A program made the translations under genes and the position numbers. 64,000 nt of DNA from an uncultured virus (IMG/VR IMGVR_UViG_3300013845_000001). Taxonomy: Duplodnaviria; Heunggongvirae; Uroviricota; Caudoviricetes. The stretch lies in IMG/VR virus record IMGVR_UViG_3300013845_000001, positions 62,001 through 126,000 of that record; one strand, given 5' to 3'. This document shows positions 2,784 to 43,593 of this stretch, piece by piece (position 1 is the stretch's first letter; every line of letters starts with the position of its first letter). The notes beneath the pieces were generated by a model. It did not search any database. It worked only from the letters and a program-made list of their open reading frames with translations, and was not told where the DNA came from.

Positions 2784-3159
2784 TTGATTTATAAGGCTTT
2801 TATGGAGTTCCTGACGGGTGGGGGTAGGTTTACATTTTAGGATCGATTCCTACCTCACCAAAAGCTCCTATCTGTTACATCAACACATAAAGTTGAAAAT
2901 TGAATGTAAATCATAAACAATTCACTTTTTCACTTCGGTAGCCACTTCGGTGAAAATTCATAAAACCCAGCAAAATCAGTACTTATAAAGTTTTCAGACA
3001 ATTCAAATTCTCATCAAAACCATAAAATATCACCTCTAAAACTCCAAAAACCATTGATTTATCAAGCTTTCCTCGAAGTTTCCTCATTTTTACCAAAATC
3101 AACATATTGACCACATCAAATATCACCTCTCCAAACTCCATAAATCCCTTATAAATCAA
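2784..3159. repeat. Non-coding block of imperfect palindromes, direct repeats and inverted repeats around a G-run
   Basis: 26-nt inverted repeat with 24/26 identity (2784-2809 vs 3134-3159); AAATATCACCTCT direct repeat near 3026 and 3118; GGGTGGGGGTAGG at 2816. Confidence 0.7.
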
Positions 3160-3406
3160 TACTTTTCACGAATTCACCGAATCATAAAATACACGTCTGC
3201 CGAAGTCATCATTTTTCAACAGAAAATAATTATTGAAATATTGGGTCTAAATTGATTCAAAATTAGCAGTCAGTTAAAATGCAACAATCACAAATAAGTA
3301 AATGACCAGGTGAGTAAATAAGCTCGCCTATAAAATTATAAACAGAGAATTTATACATGTAGCCAAACTAATAATAATAAATTTCCAACGAAAGGGGGAA
3401 ACACAA

Positions 3407-3601: not shown

Positions 3602-4127
3602 TTTTGTCTAATGCCTTAGATGGGTCTTTTGAAGAAGAATTTGTTTCAAATGAACCATCTAAAAATTTATAATTTATGTGAAACTTTGATTCAACCCTAT
3701 CTCCTAAAGTATTATATGTAAGAATAACATCAAACTCTTCAATGGGAACATTAGCCATATCTTCTTTACTAAACACTGTTGTAAATGATTGACTTGGTGC
3801 CAAGGATAATCCTTTATAAAATTCAAACGGGTTAATTATAATATTATTAGTGGGCATTTCTGGGATGATTTTTACATCAGTAATTATTCCGGTAGATGCC
3901 CCAAAATTTTGTATTTTAATTCTTGGAACAATATCACCATATATCTTGAATGGGAATATCTCTATCTGGGCCTTATTACCCTCTTTTATTATTTTGGTGT
4001 TTTGTTTCAAAGCAGCAACAGAAATAATTATTGAAATGACACCAAGAAACAAGGCAATCATTATACTTGCAATTTGAATAATATCTGACACAGTAAGTTG
4101 AATAATGTCTGATCCTACTATTTCCAT
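3567..4127 (-). CDS. Membrane-anchored hypothetical protein (moron-like)
   Basis: N-terminal transmembrane helix, GGAGG SD, opposite orientation to its neighbours. Confidence 0.75.
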   Translation of the reverse strand: MEIVGSDIIQLTVSDIIQIASIMIALFLGVISIIISVAALKQNTKIIKEGNKAQIEIFPFKIYGDIVPRIKIQNFGASTGIITDVKIIPEMPTNNIIINPFEFYKGLSLAPSQSFTTVFSKEDMANVPIEEFDVILTYNTLGDRVESKFHINYKFLDGSFETNSSSKDPSKALDKINQSIQGLLQK

Positions 4128-9476: not shown

Positions 9477-12242
9477 ATTTTAGACGTACAAATTAACATG
9501 TATTCTGTTGATACGGGACATTTTTATAGTAATCATGAAAAATATCTTCATGACATGAATTGTAAATATCGCAGAGAACGCAACTACATAAATAACAAGC
9601 TTCCTGAGTTAGAAAAACAGTTAAAAGAATTTGGATACTCTAAAGACGATATATCATTGTTTCGGTCAGATAAATCTGAAGAGGTCGAATCTGAAATATT
9701 GCCAGAACATATAGATACTATTCATGAATATATCAAATGGAATAATCTTATAAGGCATAAAAGAGAAAAAGCAAAAGAATCTAAAGACAAATTGCTTGTT
9801 ATTCTAGCAAATAGGGTATCTCAAAATGAGAAGACAAATGGTAAAGACCATACACGTAAAATAAGAAAAGATAGTTTAACAGATAATAATGTAATATCGG
9901 TCTTTGATTCCGCTCTCACCAGAACGATTGGGATAAAGCAAGATGAGCTAACAGATGCATTAATGGTTGTGCAGGTATATTATTTTGACGTATTTAAAGA
10001 TATTTCATTTTATGGGTTTACATATAACGGTGAAAAATATAAATATTTTACTTCATCTGCCGGGCAGATTCGCAAGAAAAAGGCAGTTTTTATAAAAGAA
10101 TCTGTCTGGAACCGTATTGAAAAAACCGTAATGTGCGGATTGACAATTGATAAAATCAATTCTAAAGGCGGGAATAATGTAAACAAACATCTTGCTTATA
10201 TGGCTCTTACTAATTCGGCGACTGACCAGTGGGAAGATTTCGAGATAGACAAATCAATAGTAATTGATGATTTTGAAACGAACGTATATGGTACTTTTGA
10301 TTTCATAGACGAATCAGATTATTCTATCACCAGAAAAACAGATTATGTTCCAATTCCTCACACGGACGGAGCTGGAATGATGCTACCAAGTGTAAGCCAA
10401 AAGAATTTTATGTTTCGTGCACCGTGGATTAAAGGGCTATTAGGAGTATTTGACTTTAGAAAATTTGTTGAGGTCAACCACTACTCTCCTATTATCAAAG
10501 ATATTTACGGGCAAGAACATGACATAATTAAAGAAGACATCCAAGTAATCTTTACTAAAAGCCAATTCAAAATGCAAAAATATTATGAGTCATGGGATGA
10601 GTATAAGAGTTTTTATAAAAAATATAATTGTACTTCTGGTATTTGTAATGTTGAAGAAGATAGAGTTAAGAATGCAAAAATCAATTATCAAATGCTTCAA
10701 ACTCTTACGAATATTACTGATTCTGAAATAGATATATTAACGGAAAAGTCCATCGAAAAGATAGAAAACGTATGTACGTCAAAAGATACAATGATGAATA
10801 TTCTAGGGGTTACTCCATATAACACAAAAATGACTCCTTTTCAAAAAGCCATTAAAATTTATCCTTCACTTTTATCAGATACATATGCGAAAGATGTAAT
10901 TCGTGAGGTTAAAGATAGTCTTTTAAAAAAATATCGTAGCGGAAAGCTTGAAGTGATTGGCAAATATACATTCTTACTTCCGGATTTTTATGCGGCATGT
11001 GAGTATTGGTTTGGTGGAATAGAAAATCCAAATGGATTATTAAGTGATAAGGAAGTTTTTTGTAATCTGTTCAAAAAAAGCGATAAGCTGGATTGCCTAA
11101 GAAGTCCACATCTATATAAAGAGCATGCTATAAGGTTTAATGTGGCAAGTGATGGATATGGAGATCGGGTATCAAAAATTAAAGAATGGTTTACTACTAA
11201 CGCCGTTTATACTAGTGTTCACGATTTGATAAGCAAAATTCTTCAGTTTGATGTTGATGGAGACAAGAGTCTAGTTGTGGCAGAACCTAATTTTGTTAGA
11301 ATCGCAGAAAGAAATATGAATGGGGTTGTTCCACTCTATTACAATATGAGAAAGGCTGATCCTACATTGCTTAATAACAAGACAATTTATACAGGATTAA
11401 ATGCAGCATTTACTCACGGGAATATCGGGATCTATAGTAACGACATTTCGAAAATATGGAATAATGATGTGTTTATAGCGGGAAATGAGAAAGAACAGAA
11501 GGAAGCCATTGACACCGTAAAACTTCTTTGTATGGAAAACAATTTCTGTATTGACAGTGCCAAGACACTATACATGCCAGAGAGACCAGATTGGTTTAGA
11601 CCCGTTGTTTCAAAATACACCAAAAAGAAACTACCTGCATTTTTTAAATATGCTAAGGATAAGGAAAAGGAACAGGTAGAAAAACGAAATCAGAGTTTTG
11701 TTAATAAAATTTTTGATAGAATTCCAAATAAGGCGATTAACACTAGTGGACTAAATCTTGGTTCTATAGATTATCGTTTATTGATGAGTGATGTAAATAT
11801 AGTTTGCAGTGAAGAGGTTTCTGGTTTGTATGACGAATTGAATAGAAAATATCGTTACATGATAAATATGAAAGATGAATATATTGACAATCTGAGATAC
11901 GTTGCTTGTGAAATTAGAGAGAGATTTAATGCCATTGGATACTCTGAAGAAACTACCTCTGATATGTTGGTAGAATATTTATATGGACACGAAAAACGAT
12001 ATAAACAATTGTTATGGTTCTGTTATGGTCAGAATATTGTAAATAATTTAGAAAAAAATATTCAGATTAAGAAAACCAAGTTTATTCAGTGTATTGATTG
12101 TGGAGAATGGGTTGAAGTTGATATAAAAGATACAAATACCGAGCGATGCAATGAATGTTATTTGTTATATAGAAGGAAATATAAGGCGGAAAAAGAAAAA
12201 AATAGAAGAAAAAGACTTTCGTGGACAGCTCAAGATAGCTAA
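9477..12242 (+). CDS. yonO: YonO-like single-subunit phage RNA polymerase (double-psi beta-barrel family)
   Basis: Catalytic QFDVDGD; TDGAGMM, RAPWIKG and LRSPHL motifs; C-terminal CxxC..CxxC; SPbeta-like position. Start proposed at ATT 9477 (GGAGG 8 nt upstream) rather than ATG 9498. Confidence 0.9.
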   Translation: MLDVQINMYSVDTGHFYSNHEKYLHDMNCKYRRERNYINNKLPELEKQLKEFGYSKDDISLFRSDKSEEVESEILPEHIDTIHEYIKWNNLIRHKREKAKESKDKLLVILANRVSQNEKTNGKDHTRKIRKDSLTDNNVISVFDSALTRTIGIKQDELTDALMVVQVYYFDVFKDISFYGFTYNGEKYKYFTSSAGQIRKKKAVFIKESVWNRIEKTVMCGLTIDKINSKGGNNVNKHLAYMALTNSATDQWEDFEIDKSIVIDDFETNVYGTFDFIDESDYSITRKTDYVPIPHTDGAGMMLPSVSQKNFMFRAPWIKGLLGVFDFRKFVEVNHYSPIIKDIYGQEHDIIKEDIQVIFTKSQFKMQKYYESWDEYKSFYKKYNCTSGICNVEEDRVKNAKINYQMLQTLTNITDSEIDILTEKSIEKIENVCTSKDTMMNILGVTPYNTKMTPFQKAIKIYPSLLSDTYAKDVIREVKDSLLKKYRSGKLEVIGKYTFLLPDFYAACEYWFGGIENPNGLLSDKEVFCNLFKKSDKLDCLRSPHLYKEHAIRFNVASDGYGDRVSKIKEWFTTNAVYTSVHDLISKILQFDVDGDKSLVVAEPNFVRIAERNMNGVVPLYYNMRKADPTLLNNKTIYTGLNAAFTHGNIGIYSNDISKIWNNDVFIAGNEKEQKEAIDTVKLLCMENNFCIDSAKTLYMPERPDWFRPVVSKYTKKKLPAFFKYAKDKEKEQVEKRNQSFVNKIFDRIPNKAINTSGLNLGSIDYRLLMSDVNIVCSEEVSGLYDELNRKYRYMINMKDEYIDNLRYVACEIRERFNAIGYSEETTSDMLVEYLYGHEKRYKQLLWFCYGQNIVNNLEKNIQIKKTKFIQCIDCGEWVEVDIKDTNTERCNECYLLYRRKYKAEKEKNRRKRLSWTAQDS

Positions 12243-12802: not shown

Positions 12803-13435
12803 ATGAGAGAAATCAGTATTACAGAAGCACTTAACGAATTAAAATTATATGATTCAAAAATCACAAAGGCCATCACCAATGCTTCATTTGTGAGCGGAAC
12901 TAAAAAGTCATCAGACAGAATCGGTGTAGTCTCAAAGGATATATTTATTGATAGAGCCAAATCTACATATCAGTCTTCCATTGATTTAATAGCAAATAGA
13001 AATTCTTTAAAGTCTGCAATTGTAAAATCTAATGCTATTACTGAAGTAAAGGTAGCCGATAAAGTCATGACGGTTGCCGAGGCCATTGAACGTAAAAACT
13101 CTATTGAGTATGAAGAAACCCTTTTGTCCGAAATGAAAAGGCAGTATGCGAATGCTAGTGAATTAGTAAATAAAGAAAATAAGAAAGTTGACAATAAGGT
13201 TGATGAGCTGCTTTCAACCCTGATTGGTAAGGACTCCGACAAGAAAATCAGCAAGGAAGATCAGGAAGCTATTGAAAAACCATACCGAGACAAAAACGAG
13301 TTTGAGCTTATTGACCCAATTGAAATTTACGACAAAATTGTTAAACTTGAAGAAGAGATTGATAATTTCAAAAGCCAGGTAGATACTCAGCTTGTCATTT
13401 CAAATGCTATTACAAAAATTGAAATTGATTTTTAA
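12803..13435 (+). CDS. Coiled-coil protein resembling the DIP1984-like family
   Basis: SITEALNELK...MTVAEAIERK...LVISNAITKIE pattern. Confidence 0.65.
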   Translation: MREISITEALNELKLYDSKITKAITNASFVSGTKKSSDRIGVVSKDIFIDRAKSTYQSSIDLIANRNSLKSAIVKSNAITEVKVADKVMTVAEAIERKNSIEYEETLLSEMKRQYANASELVNKENKKVDNKVDELLSTLIGKDSDKKISKEDQEAIEKPYRDKNEFELIDPIEIYDKIVKLEEEIDNFKSQVDTQLVISNAITKIEIDF

Positions 13436-13445
13436 GCCATAAATA

Positions 13446-13791
13446 TTTTGTAGTTATTACGAAAACCTAAAACTTACACCCCGTCACCTATGCGGGTATC
13501 TACGGATAATCATAGGTAAAATAAAATCAAGAACAATTCTTAATAGAATAATTTGAATTTATCAAATATTGATGAATGGCAAATACATTACTTACGATAG
13601 ATGTATTTACTAATACATATGATGGTAAAAGCTCAAAATTCAATATTCAGAATTTAAAGATTATATTTTAAAACTCTTTATTTATAAAGTTTAAAGCGTA
13701 ATTACTAAAATTCGATAAAACCCTTGACTAAGTTTTATTCGTGTCGTGTAATTGACGATTAGGTTTGTACAAGGCTGTAATAACTACAAAA
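13446..13791 (+). ncRNA. Candidate structured ncRNA with a 7-nt periodic tract
   Basis: 15-bp perfect terminal stem 13446-13460/13777-13791; inner stem 13463-13470/13759-13766; about 12 heptamers at 13628-13713. Confidence 0.7.
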
Positions 13792-13861
13792 ATGAATAAG
13801 GTTTTTCCTTTCAAGCCAATGGCAGCATTACTATTTCTGGTGGTGTTGTCATTGGTGTTTT

Positions 13862-13934
13862 TGACTAATAGCTCAGTTGGTAGAGCGCCTGTCTGTTAAA
13901 CAGGATGTCGTAGGTTCAAGCCCTACTTAGTCAG
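13862..13934 (+). tRNA. tRNA-Asn (GTT), CCA not encoded
   Basis: Acceptor TGACTAA/TTAGTCA; D-arm GCTC/GAGC; anticodon arm CCTGT-CTGTTAA-ACAGG; T-loop GGTTCAAGCC. Confidence 0.93.
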
Positions 13935-13981
13935 CTACCGTATTTTACGGAATACATATTAGAAAGAAGTGAATTATTACA

Positions 13982-14173: not shown

Positions 14174-15625
14174 GTGGTTAGTACCATCGCTGCAAAAGCA
14201 AAATTAAAAGAAGACGGAATTATGTTTTGTGGGGCAAATGCCACTGATGTTACAGGTTCTATGATTTTTATTAAATTTGGAGAAAAACGGATTTTGTTAG
14301 AGTGTGGACTGTATCAGGACAATTCATATCTCGAAGCTTACAAGGTAAACTCTGAAAAGTTCAAATTTAAACCCAGCGAAATTGATTACGTATTTGTAGG
14401 TCATACTCATGTGGATCACATTGGGTTGATTCCCAGACTGGTTAAGGAAGGGTTTACTGGAAAGATCATTATGACTCTTCCATCTTCTATTATATCCAAG
14501 CATTTATTATTGAACTGTGCATTTATCTTATCTGATGAAGCCAGGGTATTATCTAAACGATATGATAGAGATTATCAGCCAATTTACACCGATGAAGATG
14601 TGAAGAACACCTTACAATATATCTGGGTTTATAATGACTATGATAAAATTTACCAATTAGATGACGCAGTGAGTTTTCAGTGGTTGAAAAATTCTCACTG
14701 TGTGGGAGCTGCACAGCTTCAACTCATTTTAAATGATGGAATTAAAAAGAAGAAAATTTTCTATACCTCTGACATCGGAGCATTAGAAGCGAAAAATCAT
14801 TATGTAGAAAATACAGAAATCCCATCCTTTTTCAACGATATCCTTGTCCTAGAGTCAACATATGGACTTAATACAAGGACTCCAAAGAAGACCAGAGAAT
14901 TTGAAGTTGAACATCTTAGAGTGGCTATAGAGACGGTTTTAGAGCGCCAGGGAACACTTGTGCTACCGGCTTTTAGTTTCAGTCGTTCACAAGAATTACT
15001 TACGGTTTTATACGAATTGTTTGGACAAGATGAGAATTTTAAGGCACAAGTAGTCGTAGATTCTCTTTTGACTTGTGATATATGCGATACATATGGTGAA
15101 GTTTTAACAGGGGAATTTTTTGATAAATGGAATAAAGTATATAACTGGAAAAATGTAAGATATGTGCGAGAAAAGGTTGATTCGCAGGCTTGTGTGGCTG
15201 ATACCACTCCTAAAATTGTGATTTCGTCAAGCGGATTTTGTACGAACGGTAGGATCTTAACTTATTTGGATAAATATCTTCGTGATTTCAATTCTATGAT
15301 AATCTTTTCTGGATATGTAGGAACAGATGAAAGCTACCTCTCCTATCGAATCAAAAATGGCAAAACTCATAAGACAATTAATATCAATAAAAAGCCAGTT
15401 CTAAATCGGGCAGATTGTATTACAATGAGTACCTTTAGTTCCCACGCCAATTTCGATGATTTATTGAAATACGGGAGTAAGCTCAGAACTAATCAGCTAG
15501 TTTTAGTTCATGGATCAGAAGAATCAAAGAATTGTTTAAAACACCATTTAAAAGAAGAGATATCCAAAAATAACAATACCTATAAGGTAACATGTTCTAA
15601 GAAAGATATGATTATCCCGTTATAG
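14174..15625 (+). CDS. Metallo-beta-lactamase/beta-CASP ribonuclease (CPSF73/YSH1-like)
   Basis: VTGS, HTHVDH, SHCVG, SDIG, ESTYG, FSSHA and LVHG motifs. Confidence 0.9.
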   Translation: MVSTIAAKAKLKEDGIMFCGANATDVTGSMIFIKFGEKRILLECGLYQDNSYLEAYKVNSEKFKFKPSEIDYVFVGHTHVDHIGLIPRLVKEGFTGKIIMTLPSSIISKHLLLNCAFILSDEARVLSKRYDRDYQPIYTDEDVKNTLQYIWVYNDYDKIYQLDDAVSFQWLKNSHCVGAAQLQLILNDGIKKKKIFYTSDIGALEAKNHYVENTEIPSFFNDILVLESTYGLNTRTPKKTREFEVEHLRVAIETVLERQGTLVLPAFSFSRSQELLTVLYELFGQDENFKAQVVVDSLLTCDICDTYGEVLTGEFFDKWNKVYNWKNVRYVREKVDSQACVADTTPKIVISSSGFCTNGRILTYLDKYLRDFNSMIIFSGYVGTDESYLSYRIKNGKTHKTININKKPVLNRADCITMSTFSSHANFDDLLKYGSKLRTNQLVLVHGSEESKNCLKHHLKEEISKNNNTYKVTCSKKDMIIPL

Positions 15626-15658: not shown

Positions 15659-16297
15659 ATGAATAAAAAGAGGGCTCAAACAGCTATTTTTGATATTGCC
15701 ATACCACAGTCTGTAGAAAATTTGCAGTTACCAGATTCTTCATTGATTACATTTTATAAGAATTTAGAGAAACGTATCTTATGGTTAGATTCAGCAGTTG
15801 ATGATTATTTTCTTGAATATGGCAAATACATTCTCCAGTGGAATCAAGAGGATGTTGGAATACCTGCTGAAGATAGACTACCTATCAGGTTATTATTTTT
15901 CTCTCCTGGCGGAAGCCTAGATATTAACAACGCCATGATTGACATTATCAAAATGAGCAAGACAAAAGTAATAGGTATCAATATGGGGATCGCCCAGTCT
16001 GCCGGTGCTTTTATCTACCTTGCATGTCATGAAAGATATACTATGCCAAAAGCGGGATTTTTGTTTCATAGGGGCCAGGGCGGATTTGAAGGTACATATG
16101 ATGAAATTATTAGTCAGGTAATGGAATATCAAAGACAGATAGAGGAACTCGAAACATATGTGCTTGAAAATACAAATATTGATGAAGAAACATTCGCTGA
16201 AAACTTTGGAACAGAATGGTTTATCTCGGCAGATGAAGCTATTAAATATGGTATCGCGCATAAGATTGTAAAAAATATTGATGAAATATATTCGTAA
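15659..16297 (+). CDS. ClpP-like serine protease
   Basis: FSPGG, AQSAG (Ser), FHRG (His), ISADEAIKYG. Confidence 0.88.
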   Translation: MNKKRAQTAIFDIAIPQSVENLQLPDSSLITFYKNLEKRILWLDSAVDDYFLEYGKYILQWNQEDVGIPAEDRLPIRLLFFSPGGSLDINNAMIDIIKMSKTKVIGINMGIAQSAGAFIYLACHERYTMPKAGFLFHRGQGGFEGTYDEIISQVMEYQRQIEELETYVLENTNIDEETFAENFGTEWFISADEAIKYGIAHKIVKNIDEIYS

Positions 16298-41282: not shown

Positions 41283-42401
41283 ATGTTTAAATCGTATAAG
41301 TATCGAATATATCCTAACGCACAACAAGAAGATCTTATTCAGAAAACCTTTGGAAGTTGCAGGTTTGTGTATAATCAGACTCTTTCGTATAGAAAAAAGC
41401 TATATGAAGTCGAAGGAAAATCATTAAGTAAATTAGACTGTAAAGCTTATATGAGTCGCACTTTAAAGAAAGAACACACGTGGTTAAGTGAAGTTGATAA
41501 ATTTTCTTTAGAAAATTCGATATTTGATCTTGATTTTGCTTATAAAATGTTCTTTAAAAGCCACGCGGGGTATCCTAAGTACAAAAGTAAACACAACAAT
41601 AGGAATTCATATAAAACAAATTGTAACTATTGTGGAAAACCAACCATTGAAGTTTCTTTTGAAGAAAGCGAAATTAAACTTCCAAAGCTAAGATGGGTAA
41701 AAGCAAAGATTCATAGAGAATTTATAGGTAAAATAAAATCAGCAACAATTTCACAAGTACCATCTGGTAAGTATTTCGTATCTATATTAATAGAAACAGA
41801 ACATATTCCACTGGAATCTACTGGTCATATGATAGGTATAGATCTTGGCATTAAAGATTTACTTATCACTTCCGATAGAGAAAAGTTTGATAATGTTCGC
41901 CCCACTAAAAAATATGAATATAAATTGGCGAAAGAACAACGTAAACTCTCTTGTAAACAAAAGGGTAGTAAGAATTGGAATAAACAAAGGATCAAAGTAG
42001 CTAAAGTCTATGAAAAAATTCATAATACCAGAATTGATAATCTACATAAAATTACACACAAACTAATCAGCGATAACCAAGTGATAGTTAGTGAGAATTT
42101 GGCAGTTTCAAACATGGTAAAGAATCACAATCTTGCAAAAGCAATAACTGATTGTGGGTGGTATGAACTTACGAGACAATTACAGTATAAGGCTGATTGG
42201 AATAATCGAGATTATATCAAAATCGGTAGATTTGTTCCAAGTAGTCAGTTGTGTTCTAATTGTGGTTATCAGAATCCAGACACAAAGAATTTATCTGTTA
42301 GAGAATGGACTTGTCCTATATGTGTAACTATTCACGACAGAGACGTTAATGCTGCAAAGAATATATTAAATGAGGGATTAAGGCTATTAAGTGTATCTTA
42401 G
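41283..42401 (+). CDS. tnpB: IS200/IS605-family RNA-guided endonuclease TnpB
   Basis: YKYRIYP HTH; RuvC GIDLG, ENL and DRDVNAAKN; Zn finger CSNC..CPIC. Confidence 0.95.
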   Translation: MFKSYKYRIYPNAQQEDLIQKTFGSCRFVYNQTLSYRKKLYEVEGKSLSKLDCKAYMSRTLKKEHTWLSEVDKFSLENSIFDLDFAYKMFFKSHAGYPKYKSKHNNRNSYKTNCNYCGKPTIEVSFEESEIKLPKLRWVKAKIHREFIGKIKSATISQVPSGKYFVSILIETEHIPLESTGHMIGIDLGIKDLLITSDREKFDNVRPTKKYEYKLAKEQRKLSCKQKGSKNWNKQRIKVAKVYEKIHNTRIDNLHKITHKLISDNQVIVSENLAVSNMVKNHNLAKAITDCGWYELTRQLQYKADWNNRDYIKIGRFVPSSQLCSNCGYQNPDTKNLSVREWTCPICVTIHDRDVNAAKNILNEGLRLLSVS

Positions 42402-43075: not shown

Positions 43076-43140
43076 GTGACACCTCCTTAATATTGATACA
43101 TGAATTATAGCATTTTATAAAAAGAAAAGGAAGTGAAGTT

Positions 43141-43593
43141 ATAAACAGAACTAAATTTAATGTATCCAAAGATATAGATAAGAGAACTTATGATGGAATC
43201 GTGTTTGATTCAGTATTAGAAATGAAATACTACAGAGACGTTCTATTACCGCTGGTGAAGAGTGGTGATGTGGTAAATTATGAATTGCAAAAACCATACG
43301 AGTTACAACCAAAGTTCGTACACGATACGAAATCAGTTCAGCCAATTAAATATGTGGCTGACTTTTTTATTGTTTATAAAGATGGGCATGAAGAAGTTAT
43401 AGATACAAAAGGTTGTCCAGACAGTGTCGCCACTTTAAAGAGGAAATTGTTTTGGTACCACTACCCCACCGTAAATTATAAATGGATTTGTTATTCAAAA
43501 ATTGACGGAGGCTGGTGTGAATATGAAACCGTTAAGAAAGCAAGGTCTGAACGGAAACGAATAAAGAAAAGCTCTATCAATAACAGAGTTTAA
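43141..43593 (+). CDS. DUF1064-family PD-(D/E)xK nuclease
   Basis: RTYDGIVFDS..E, YVADF..DTKG; probable ATA start at 43141. Confidence 0.85.
   Translation: MNRTKFNVSKDIDKRTYDGIVFDSVLEMKYYRDVLLPLVKSGDVVNYELQKPYELQPKFVHDTKSVQPIKYVADFFIVYKDGHEEVIDTKGCPDSVATLKRKLFWYHYPTVNYKWICYSKIDGGWCEYETVKKARSERKRIKKSSINNRV

Follow-up and report, generated by a model that had tools for sequence, protein, structure and literature searches.

Introduction

It is rare for a large structured RNA to show strong covariation and yet lack an assigned function; earlier examples proved to be ribozymes, riboswitches, ribonucleoprotein scaffolds or self-assembling cages. Here we describe a 346-nucleotide (nt) RNA (positions 13446-13791, plus strand) that follows the gene for a helical protein of 210 amino acids (aa; 12803-13435, plus strand) in the genome of an uncultured virus of the Caudoviricetes (IMG/VR record IMGVR_UViG_3300013845_000001). 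The stretch that was analysed, hereafter called the window, comprises 64,000 nt and corresponds to bases 62001-126000 of this 128,564-bp record, which carries direct terminal repeats and is rated complete. A sequence-only reading of the window had proposed that a coiled-coil, DIP1984-like protein and a downstream RNA with a tract of degenerate heptamers might form a ribonucleoprotein system.

Among described RNAs, GOLLD and ROOL are the closest in setting. They consist of a conserved half and a variable half that is able to hold a tRNA, and their function is not established. Both are large, ornate RNAs that occur in phages and prophages (10.1101/2024.12.08.627333), and a paper on phage K places them beside tRNA genes and reports strong transcription (PMC9241854). 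The long noncoding RNAs that this paper describes beside tRNAs in phage K were considered as possible relatives and set aside, as the first 50 kb of KF766114 contains neither the RNA nor the protein described here. Like GOLLD and ROOL, the element is phage-borne and often accompanied by tRNA genes on the same strand, and its variable part holds a tRNA in two relatives. In contrast, it has about half their size, matches no Rfam family, contains a heptad-spaced single-stranded tract and is tied to one protein gene, even where no tRNA gene is near.

In the type III toxin-antitoxin systems known so far, the toxin gene is preceded by an RNA that is built from tandem repeats of about 36 nt and restrains a compact endoribonuclease toxin. 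ToxIN and its type III relatives resemble the present locus in that a protein gene adjoins a repeat-bearing RNA and in that such pairs occur on phages, mobile elements and chromosomes. They differ in gene order, which is opposite here, in the length of the repeated unit (about 36 nt rather than 7 nt), in the large scaffold of the present RNA and in the protein, which is predicted to be a helical bundle rather than to have an endoribonuclease fold. A further point of comparison is offered by TRAP, which acts on the trp leader, and HutP, which acts on the hut mRNA; both are oligomeric proteins that read evenly spaced RNA triplets. The element likewise has short conserved motifs at an exact 7-nt spacing and without predicted pairing. 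Its tract, however, lies within a large pseudoknotted RNA 3' of a gene and not in a 5' leader that controls termination, and the protein shows no homology to TRAP or HutP (only generic helical bundles were found in fold searches); its binding to the tract is putative. Finally, stable RNAs of phage T5 such as rnaX (NC_005859) are also noncoding and without assigned function, and they share the tRNA-rich early region with the T5 copy of the element. Unlike them, the element, which lies past gene T5.085, carries no annotation in NC_005859.

Co-occurrence of the gene and the RNA

Relatives of the 210-aa protein are present in 735 phage records. When 50,697 phage records were searched with the region by blastn, only the tRNA-Asn gene gave matches, as the RNA is too diverged for this method, and profile searches were needed. 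A hidden Markov model (HMM) was built from a first RNA alignment (A1) and refined in four rounds of iteration with nhmmer. Three sets of loci were searched, namely the best 80 of 316 viral relatives found with the protein alignment A2 (37-76% identity), the best 80 of 95 relatives on bacterial genome contigs, and five cultured phages chosen from the 735 records.

The element, which the sequence-only reading had proposed to look for downstream of all homologues of the protein, was found in 80/80 viral loci, 77/80 bacterial loci and all five cultured phages. With the first HMM, a match was detected downstream of the gene in 69 of the 80 viral loci at E<=10, and with the iterated HMM in all 80 and in the window. 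When the final HMM was run on both strands of the whole viral loci, it gave 80 matches, all at the expected site and none elsewhere. The three bacterial loci without a match were two that end soon past the gene and one that encodes a relative of only 35% identity. For the cultured phages, E values were 3.3e-23 (Brevibacillus phage Jenst), 3.8e-13 (Clostridioides phage LIBA2945), 1.5e-7 (Escherichia phage T5), 4e-5 (Escherichia phage Av-05) and 2.4e-4 (Pseudomonas phage phiPsa374), and in all five the match lies in an unannotated gap. In seven viral contigs whose protein is 58-76% identical, the same element was found right past the stop codon in every case, followed in most of them by tRNA genes. 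A degenerate pattern together with the A1 HMM revealed additional copies in very diverged contigs, some of which are G+C-rich.

The linkage was also examined in the reverse direction, starting from 106 loci that were picked with a degenerate pattern derived from a conserved 3' box of the RNA. Of these, 27 carry the RNA, and the gene was present upstream in all 19 that contain enough upstream DNA; in the other eight, less than 135 nt of upstream sequence is available. The remaining neighbours vary widely across loci, including the 77 bacterial ones, and the gene alone stays with the RNA. That it is the only constant companion of the RNA is the main reason to read both as one functional unit, and these comparisons of loci support the view that gene and RNA form a conserved pair.

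The pair has a patchy distribution over phages of both Gram-positive and Gram-negative bacteria and over bacteria of many phyla. Phage types that carry it include T5, T5-like, rV5-like, Otagovirus and Bcp1-like phages as well as large Clostridium and Clostridioides phages. In T5, the copy spans approximately positions 3640-3990 of the extracted locus (L206), which correspond to roughly 43,140-43,490 of NC_005859 on the minus strand, within a 364-nt gap past T5.085. Its closing stem is formed by CTAGTAAATCGGTAGAC and GTTTATCGGTTTACTAG, and the only feature shown in the record is a promoter at the far end of the gap. In Jenst (L204), two Rfam sites flank the element (locus positions 3125-3202 and 3660-3934): a skipping-rope RNA (RF02924, 67.6 bits) lies between the stop codon of the gene and the element, and a match to the BsrG family (RF01412, 119 bits) is located just past it. 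Extra hairpins between the gene and the RNA were also seen in loci L148, L191 and L194.

Extent and fold of the RNA

The perfect 15-bp stem reported in the sequence-only reading, which opens 10 nt past the stop codon and spans 346 nt, was confirmed by its coordinates. Its arms, TTTTGTAGTTATTAC (13446-13460) and GTAATAACTACAAAA (13777-13791), are 100% complementary and enclose 316 nt; the first and last base of this helix, P1, delimit the whole structured RNA. The family HMM detects a single copy in the window (13440-13789, E 1.8e-60). A similarity of 27 nt at 41724-41750 had been considered as a second copy and was ruled out on this basis. A stretch of 361 nt folds at -72.8 kcal/mol, compared to -53.07 +/- 4.68 kcal/mol for shuffled sequences (z -4.22; none of 100 shuffles as good). 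The minus strand also folds well (z -4.78), and the folding energy therefore gives no information about the strand. This information comes from the pair types: in helices P1, P2 and Px, 131 alignment cells hold G-U or U-G and 41 hold A-C or C-A, and this excess indicates that the RNA is read from the plus strand, as is the gene. The element is thus a structured RNA encoded on the plus strand.

Conservation of the fold was analysed with an alignment of 57 elements (A3), which comprises the five cultured phages and 52 of 60 non-redundant viral copies; the eight copies left out (L124, L136, L137, L158, L180, L184, L185 and L193) are closely related to copies that the alignment retains. Of the 17 pairs predicted by RNAalifold, 15 show compensatory changes. 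For a helix set consisting of P1, P2, P3*, Px and two local stems, 77.8% of the cells are paired, compared to 56.6% in shuffled alignments (0/500 as high), and the covariation score is 0.541 compared to 0.179 (0/500), while controls with slid partners remain at 0.14 or below.

P1 is paired in 87.5% of cells, and all 15 pairs change on both sides among the 57 sequences, as illustrated by TTGCAATTATTAC/GTAGTAATTGCAA in L010 and GGCAGCTATTGC/GCAATGGTTGCC in L015. Its 5' strand is followed by a conserved junction, YGAAAAC (13461-13467), which was seen in RNAduplex listings and of which G26 and A27 are nearly invariant in A3, and its 3' strand is immediately preceded by a conserved GGCUG. P2 is formed by AAACCUAA (13463-13470) and UUAGGUUU (13759-13766) and corresponds to the nested stem AAACCTAA/TTAGGTTT that had been noted from the single sequence; it is paired in 75.1% of cells, and each of the six pairs counted changes on both sides. 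In P3*, UUACAC (13474-13479) pairs with GUGUAA (13746-13751). Between 81.5 and 89.1% of cells are paired and the helix covaries, with one pair occurring as AU 22, CG 13, GC 4 and UA 4 times. An alternative partner at 13729-13734 for the conserved AACUUA segment (13471-13476) was paired in only 50.9% of cells and was dropped in favour of P3*. The strongest pairing was obtained for Px, in which CCUUG (13722-13726) pairs with CAAGG (13770-13774) in 96.0% of cells, with pair types such as AU 21, UA 21, GC 5 and CG 3. Both P2 and P3* are crossed by Px, and the two ends of the RNA therefore make up a pseudoknotted core. This 3' region also contains the most conserved box of the family, UUCGAUAAAAYCC (13711-13723), in which A284 and C287 are invariant in A3 and their neighbours nearly so.

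Two further stems had been read from the single sequence. The ACCTATG/CATAGGT stem is present (13486-13492 and 13511-13517) and belongs to a 5' H-type pseudoknot (13480-13517), in which it is crossed by CCCG (13480-13483) pairing with CGGG (13493-13496). In a search for crossing stems with trimmed helices, the real sequence scored better than all 30 shuffles in 28/57 elements, and a by-eye listing, which is no alignment count, located such a knot 16-21 nt past P1 in about 24/57, with differing sequences. The knot thus appears to be a trait of part of the family. The candidate stem GATAAAAC/GTTTTATT exists in the sequence of the window, but across relatives only 61.8% of its cells are paired and real covariation is lacking.

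The region between the 5' knot and the heptamers (13518-13625) forms local hairpins and varies in length and sequence, corresponding to the gap-rich columns of about 200-445 of A3. Complete tRNA genes lie within it in L190 (2206-2281, Ile-TAT) and L194 (2287-2358, Gln-TTG), a borderline tRNA is found there in L095, and several other relatives have T-arm-like GGTTCRAnnCC hairpins at this place. In L098 (positions 1-300), coding-like sequence takes the place of the 5' half of the element, and the 3' half is intact. Either a rearrangement or an insertion into the variable region may account for this.

The heptamer tract

On its 3' side, the variable region gives way to a tract of seven in-register n-U-Y-A-A-a-g units (tract 1, 13626-13678), followed ahead of the 3' core by four UAA-led units that were read from the sequence (tract 2, 13685-13712; UAAAGUU UAAAGCG UAAUUAC UAAAAUU). 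A small hairpin, CUUUA/UAAAG (13676-13689), may separate the two tracts; with 55.2% of cells paired in a gapped part of the alignment, it is uncertain. The heptamer register claimed in the sequence-only reading turned out to be real, conserved and exact. In the window, the identity of tract 1 at lag 7 is 0.587, compared to 0.351 +/- 0.066 for shuffled sequences (p 0.0002). Lag 7 gives the highest value of lags 1-13 in all 57 aligned homologues, with a mean of 0.56 compared to 0.31 after shuffling, and echoes of the autocorrelation occur at lags 14 and 21. Column counts are in line with this: at every unit, U is found in 50-56 and A in 56-57 of the 57 sequences, and there is hardly any insertion or deletion. 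TRF, at a relaxed threshold, detected a period of 7 at 13633-13658 (3.7 copies, score 31). RNAalifold predicted no pairs within tract 1 for the 57 sequences. A degenerate pattern with UAA at 7-nt spacing picked up homologues, and in some relatives one spacing is 8.

Apparent novelty of the RNA and a hint of a discrete species

The sequence-only reading had not recognised a described system, and this still holds: no Rfam family, no annotation in the records viewed and no paper was found. In an Rfam 15 scan of the window at gathering scores, only the tRNA-Asn was reported and the element matched no family, with GOLLD, ROOL, tmRNA, 6S RNA, Y RNA, RNase P, group I and II introns and known ribozymes among those covered. 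At E<=10, nothing credible was obtained on the element within 13380-13960, the best match being Spd-sr37 with 23.3 bits against a cut-off of 45, and in ten homologous loci nothing was found on the element except for the borderline tRNA in the L095 copy. ARAGORN, applied to the window and to 18 related loci, detected no transfer-messenger RNA. Literature on T5 noncoding RNA, GOLLD and ROOL, phage structured RNAs, DIP1984 and DUF6847 yielded nothing on this RNA or protein, and no mention of T5.085 was found. A survey from 2023 lists more than 10,000 unnamed viral structured RNA candidates (PMC10690425), and the RNA described here may be among them; the conserved box is absent from the six of its supplementary files that were searched. 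The gene-plus-RNA pair seems so far undescribed.

A weak hint that the RNA is kept as a discrete species comes from the coverage of assembled contigs. Contigs from two metatranscriptome runs, which belong to different studies, are limited to 13460-13781 (X19) and 13553-13704 (X18), while a contig from a DNA run spans both ends of the element (13146-13862). These are assembled contigs of relatives, all with shares <=0.30, from which starts, ends, strand, level and habitat cannot be read.

The protein

The open reading frame at 12803-13435 encodes a member of phrog_1491, to which T5.085 of phage T5 also belongs; with E 2.9e-62, residues 1-209 of the window protein align to positions 2-210 of the 211-position profile. 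This family is labelled 'tail fiber', for which we found no support in this analysis. The window protein has no match in Pfam and none in NCBIfam. Its AlphaFold2 model (mean pLDDT 85.2) shows long helices packed into a bundle, together with three short stretches of strand and small beta hairpins. The protein is thus predicted to be helical, as the sequence-only reading had it, whereas the plain coiled coil that was claimed is not what the model suggests. A Foldseek search of the Protein Data Bank (PDB) with this model returned nothing at E<=0.001, a sequence profile search of the same database gave only 8bjw_A (E 0.07), the BFVD fold search found uncharacterised phage proteins only, and the protein Atlas returned only unnamed viral clusters.

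The proposed likeness to DIP1984 is faint. Weak matches occur in some relatives, with NF038048 in 3/14 (best E 0.0048) and PF20935 (DUF6847) in 4/14 (best E 0.0032), both far under the curated cut-offs (70 bits for NF038048), while the window protein itself stays below every threshold. The DIP1984 structure from C. diphtheriae (3kdq) is the third-ranked Foldseek match (E 0.35), and DUF6847 is found in 15% of the members of a nearby Atlas cluster (score 0.87). In length, the window protein exceeds the 149-position model by about 60 residues. A remote kinship to DIP1984/DUF6847 may exist.

The motif S-N-A-x-T occurs twice in the protein, around residues 76-80 and 200-204 (segments of about 73-84 and 197-208). 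Both copies are followed by a short strand and belong to the best conserved positions in A2, which suggests that the protein may carry an internal duplication. Rad, the anti-retron protein of the T5-like phage SP15, was considered as a relative and set aside as a different protein, of 189 aa and with a TOPRIM-like domain (10.1101/2023.03.15.532788).

Interpretation and alternatives

In our reading, gene and RNA constitute a self-contained RNA-protein module whose heptad tract acts as a docking ruler, and we give this reading about even chances. The RNA would be transcribed together with the upstream gene and would then persist as a separate, stable molecule, with P1 as the site of protection or trimming. 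The seven-unit tract, about 50 nt without a conserved pairing partner, would emerge from the pseudoknotted core with the four UAA-led units after it, and the evenly spaced U-Y-A units would be read either by multiple protein copies or by different surfaces of one oligomer, so as to form a ribonucleoprotein. The sequence-only reading had proposed that one subunit might oligomerise per heptamer. The putative binding via the heptamers would resemble that of TRAP and HutP.

Several points weigh against this reading. All 14 proteins examined are acidic (pI 5.0-6.8), which argues against RNA binding, as most RNA-binding proteins are not. The wide fold search with VIA found only generic helical bundles, the best being a syntaxin with a Z score of 9.4, which is below the level that the tool calls meaningful for helical proteins. 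The tight linkage of gene and RNA could stem from shared transcription alone, and the tract could serve the tertiary or quaternary structure of the RNA or bind a host factor instead of the neighbouring protein. A scan for promoter-like sites gave 11, compared to 8.2 +/- 2.9 expected, which is not above chance. Moreover, iteration in AT-rich DNA could make an nhmmer profile drift; the control on both strands of whole loci speaks against such drift.

The RNA might also act alone, as an ornate RNA in the manner of GOLLD and ROOL and with the gene as a passenger that supplies a promoter. It could, for instance, be a self-assembling scaffold linked to clusters of tRNA genes. tRNA genes lie within 1.5 kb in 55/80 viral loci, all 123 tRNAs near viral loci are on the strand of the element, and the placement of GOLLD and ROOL next to tRNA genes, the tRNAs inside the variable region of some copies, the complex pseudoknotted core and the acidic nature of the partner protein would all fit. 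However, only 9/80 bacterial loci have a tRNA gene within this distance, so that 71/80 keep the RNA without one, while the gene accompanies the RNA at every locus that could be tested. The pair also persists outside phages, and the absence of a matching Rfam family, even at E<=10, argues in the same direction. We consider it rather unlikely that the RNA acts alone. A toxin-antitoxin-like conflict module, in which the repeats, in a loose parallel to type III systems, hold the protein inactive and its release harms the cell or a competing phage, would be a special case of the ribonucleoprotein reading and is, in this specific form, unlikely. It would be in line with the patchy and wide distribution, with the repeated units in the RNA, with stand-alone two-part chromosomal loci beside an IS3-type transposase or an AbiEii-like gene and with a DNA methyltransferase gene next to about 20 Lysinibacillus loci, and the tRNA-rich region of T5-like phages is termed an anti-defence island in a preprint (10.1101/2023.03.15.532788). 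Against a type III system in particular stand the downstream position of the RNA, a 7-nt unit as the only tandem periodicity found, the large scaffold and the helical-bundle protein.

For a cis-acting 3' untranslated region, which would stabilise or regulate the upstream mRNA through protein feedback or as a barrier to 3' exonucleases and would have no function in trans, it can be argued that the element begins 10 nt past the stop codon, always lies directly 3' on the strand of the gene and is followed by a terminator-like hairpin in Jenst and phiPsa374. Yet a stabiliser would need far less than an RNA of 300-450 nt in which helices cross and single-stranded boxes are invariant, gene and RNA are separated by the skipping-rope RNA in Jenst and by the extra hairpins in three other loci, and the contigs from RNA runs, a weak hint as said above, cover the element and not the gene. 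This explanation seems quite improbable to us. A feature at the level of DNA, such as a miniature inverted-repeat transposable element, an iteron replication origin or a packaging site, would account for the perfect 15-bp terminal inverted repeats, the AT-rich centre with short repeats and the equal folding of both strands. It is, however, largely refuted and has next to no likelihood left: the element occurs once in the 128.6-kb genome, at a fixed place and orientation relative to one gene, and its stems are kept by compensatory changes with the described excess of G-U over A-C cells, which fits a single transcribed strand. A 7-bp period is also out of step with the helical repeat of DNA. The closing 15-mer is present in the genome as the two arms only, plus one site with two mismatches, and no target-site duplication was seen in the sequence at the ends of the element.

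With regard to the function of the RNA-protein module, our favoured guess is a role in phage-host conflict, as counter-defence or as a toxin-antitoxin-like pair, because of the settings in which it is found, namely tRNA-rich regions of phages and mobile islands by insertion sequence (IS), AbiEii-like and methyltransferase genes. As a more tentative proposal, which we hold to be possible but somewhat doubtful, it would represent a new class of ribonucleoprotein, in which the protein sits on a pseudoknotted RNA with a ruler of seven 7-nt units (plus four), which is spread across tailed phages and also free-standing in bacterial chromosomes, and which acts in conflict as counter-defence or as an RNA-restrained effector. 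If the reading as an RNA-protein module holds, T5, a model phage of seventy years' study, and hundreds of other phages would hold an unannotated folded RNA with a dedicated protein, the label 'tail fiber protein' in many phage annotations would be corrected and Rfam would gain a family. The system lends itself to testing through its genetic partner, its exact 7-nt ruler, its presence in a phage, T5, that can be propagated on E. coli K-12 and its free-standing bacterial form.

Genomic setting

In the window, the RNA is followed by a 19-pair hairpin and a T run (13815-13856, plus strand), which resembles a terminator, and by a tRNA-Asn gene with the anticodon GTT (13862-13935, plus strand), 70 nt past the element and detected by both Rfam and ARAGORN. 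Similar GGTGGCGGT...ATCGTCA hairpins are found at the same place in L009, L011, L013 and L014.

On two bacterial chromosomes, one of Lysinibacillus and one of Brevibacillus, the pair stands alone over 20 kb among metabolic, regulatory and housekeeping genes, and no phage structural genes were seen there (L288, gene at 9933-10595 with the RNA after it; L289, gene at 10031-10651). One of these copies adjoins an IS3-type transposase gene and the other is near a gene for an AbiEii-like nucleotidyltransferase. About twenty Lysinibacillus loci (within L248-L277) have a phrog_2034 gene upstream of the module, and downstream of it the opposite strand carries a gene for a DNA methyltransferase (phrog_11787), an arrangement that could represent a conserved island.

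Among bacterial assemblies, the closest relative of the module in the window (L207) encodes a protein of 96% identity and is likewise followed by the RNA and a tRNA-Asn gene. As it sits on a 299.6-kb contig of a Lachnospiraceae bacterium, this suggests that the virus may infect members of this group. Upstream of the module, the window encodes a 914-aa protein (9498-12242) with a match to the RNA-dependent RNA polymerase-type family PF05183 and a strong match to phrog_8308, which makes it a candidate for a YonO-like single-subunit RNA polymerase; the same family is found upstream of the module in the Lachnospiraceae loci L207, L209, L211 and L246. Just past the tRNA gene lies a gene for a metallo-beta-lactamase/beta-CASP/RMMBL protein (14174-15625), which may be RNase J- or CPSF-like, followed by an open reading frame (15659-16297) that was judged by eye to be ClpP-like.

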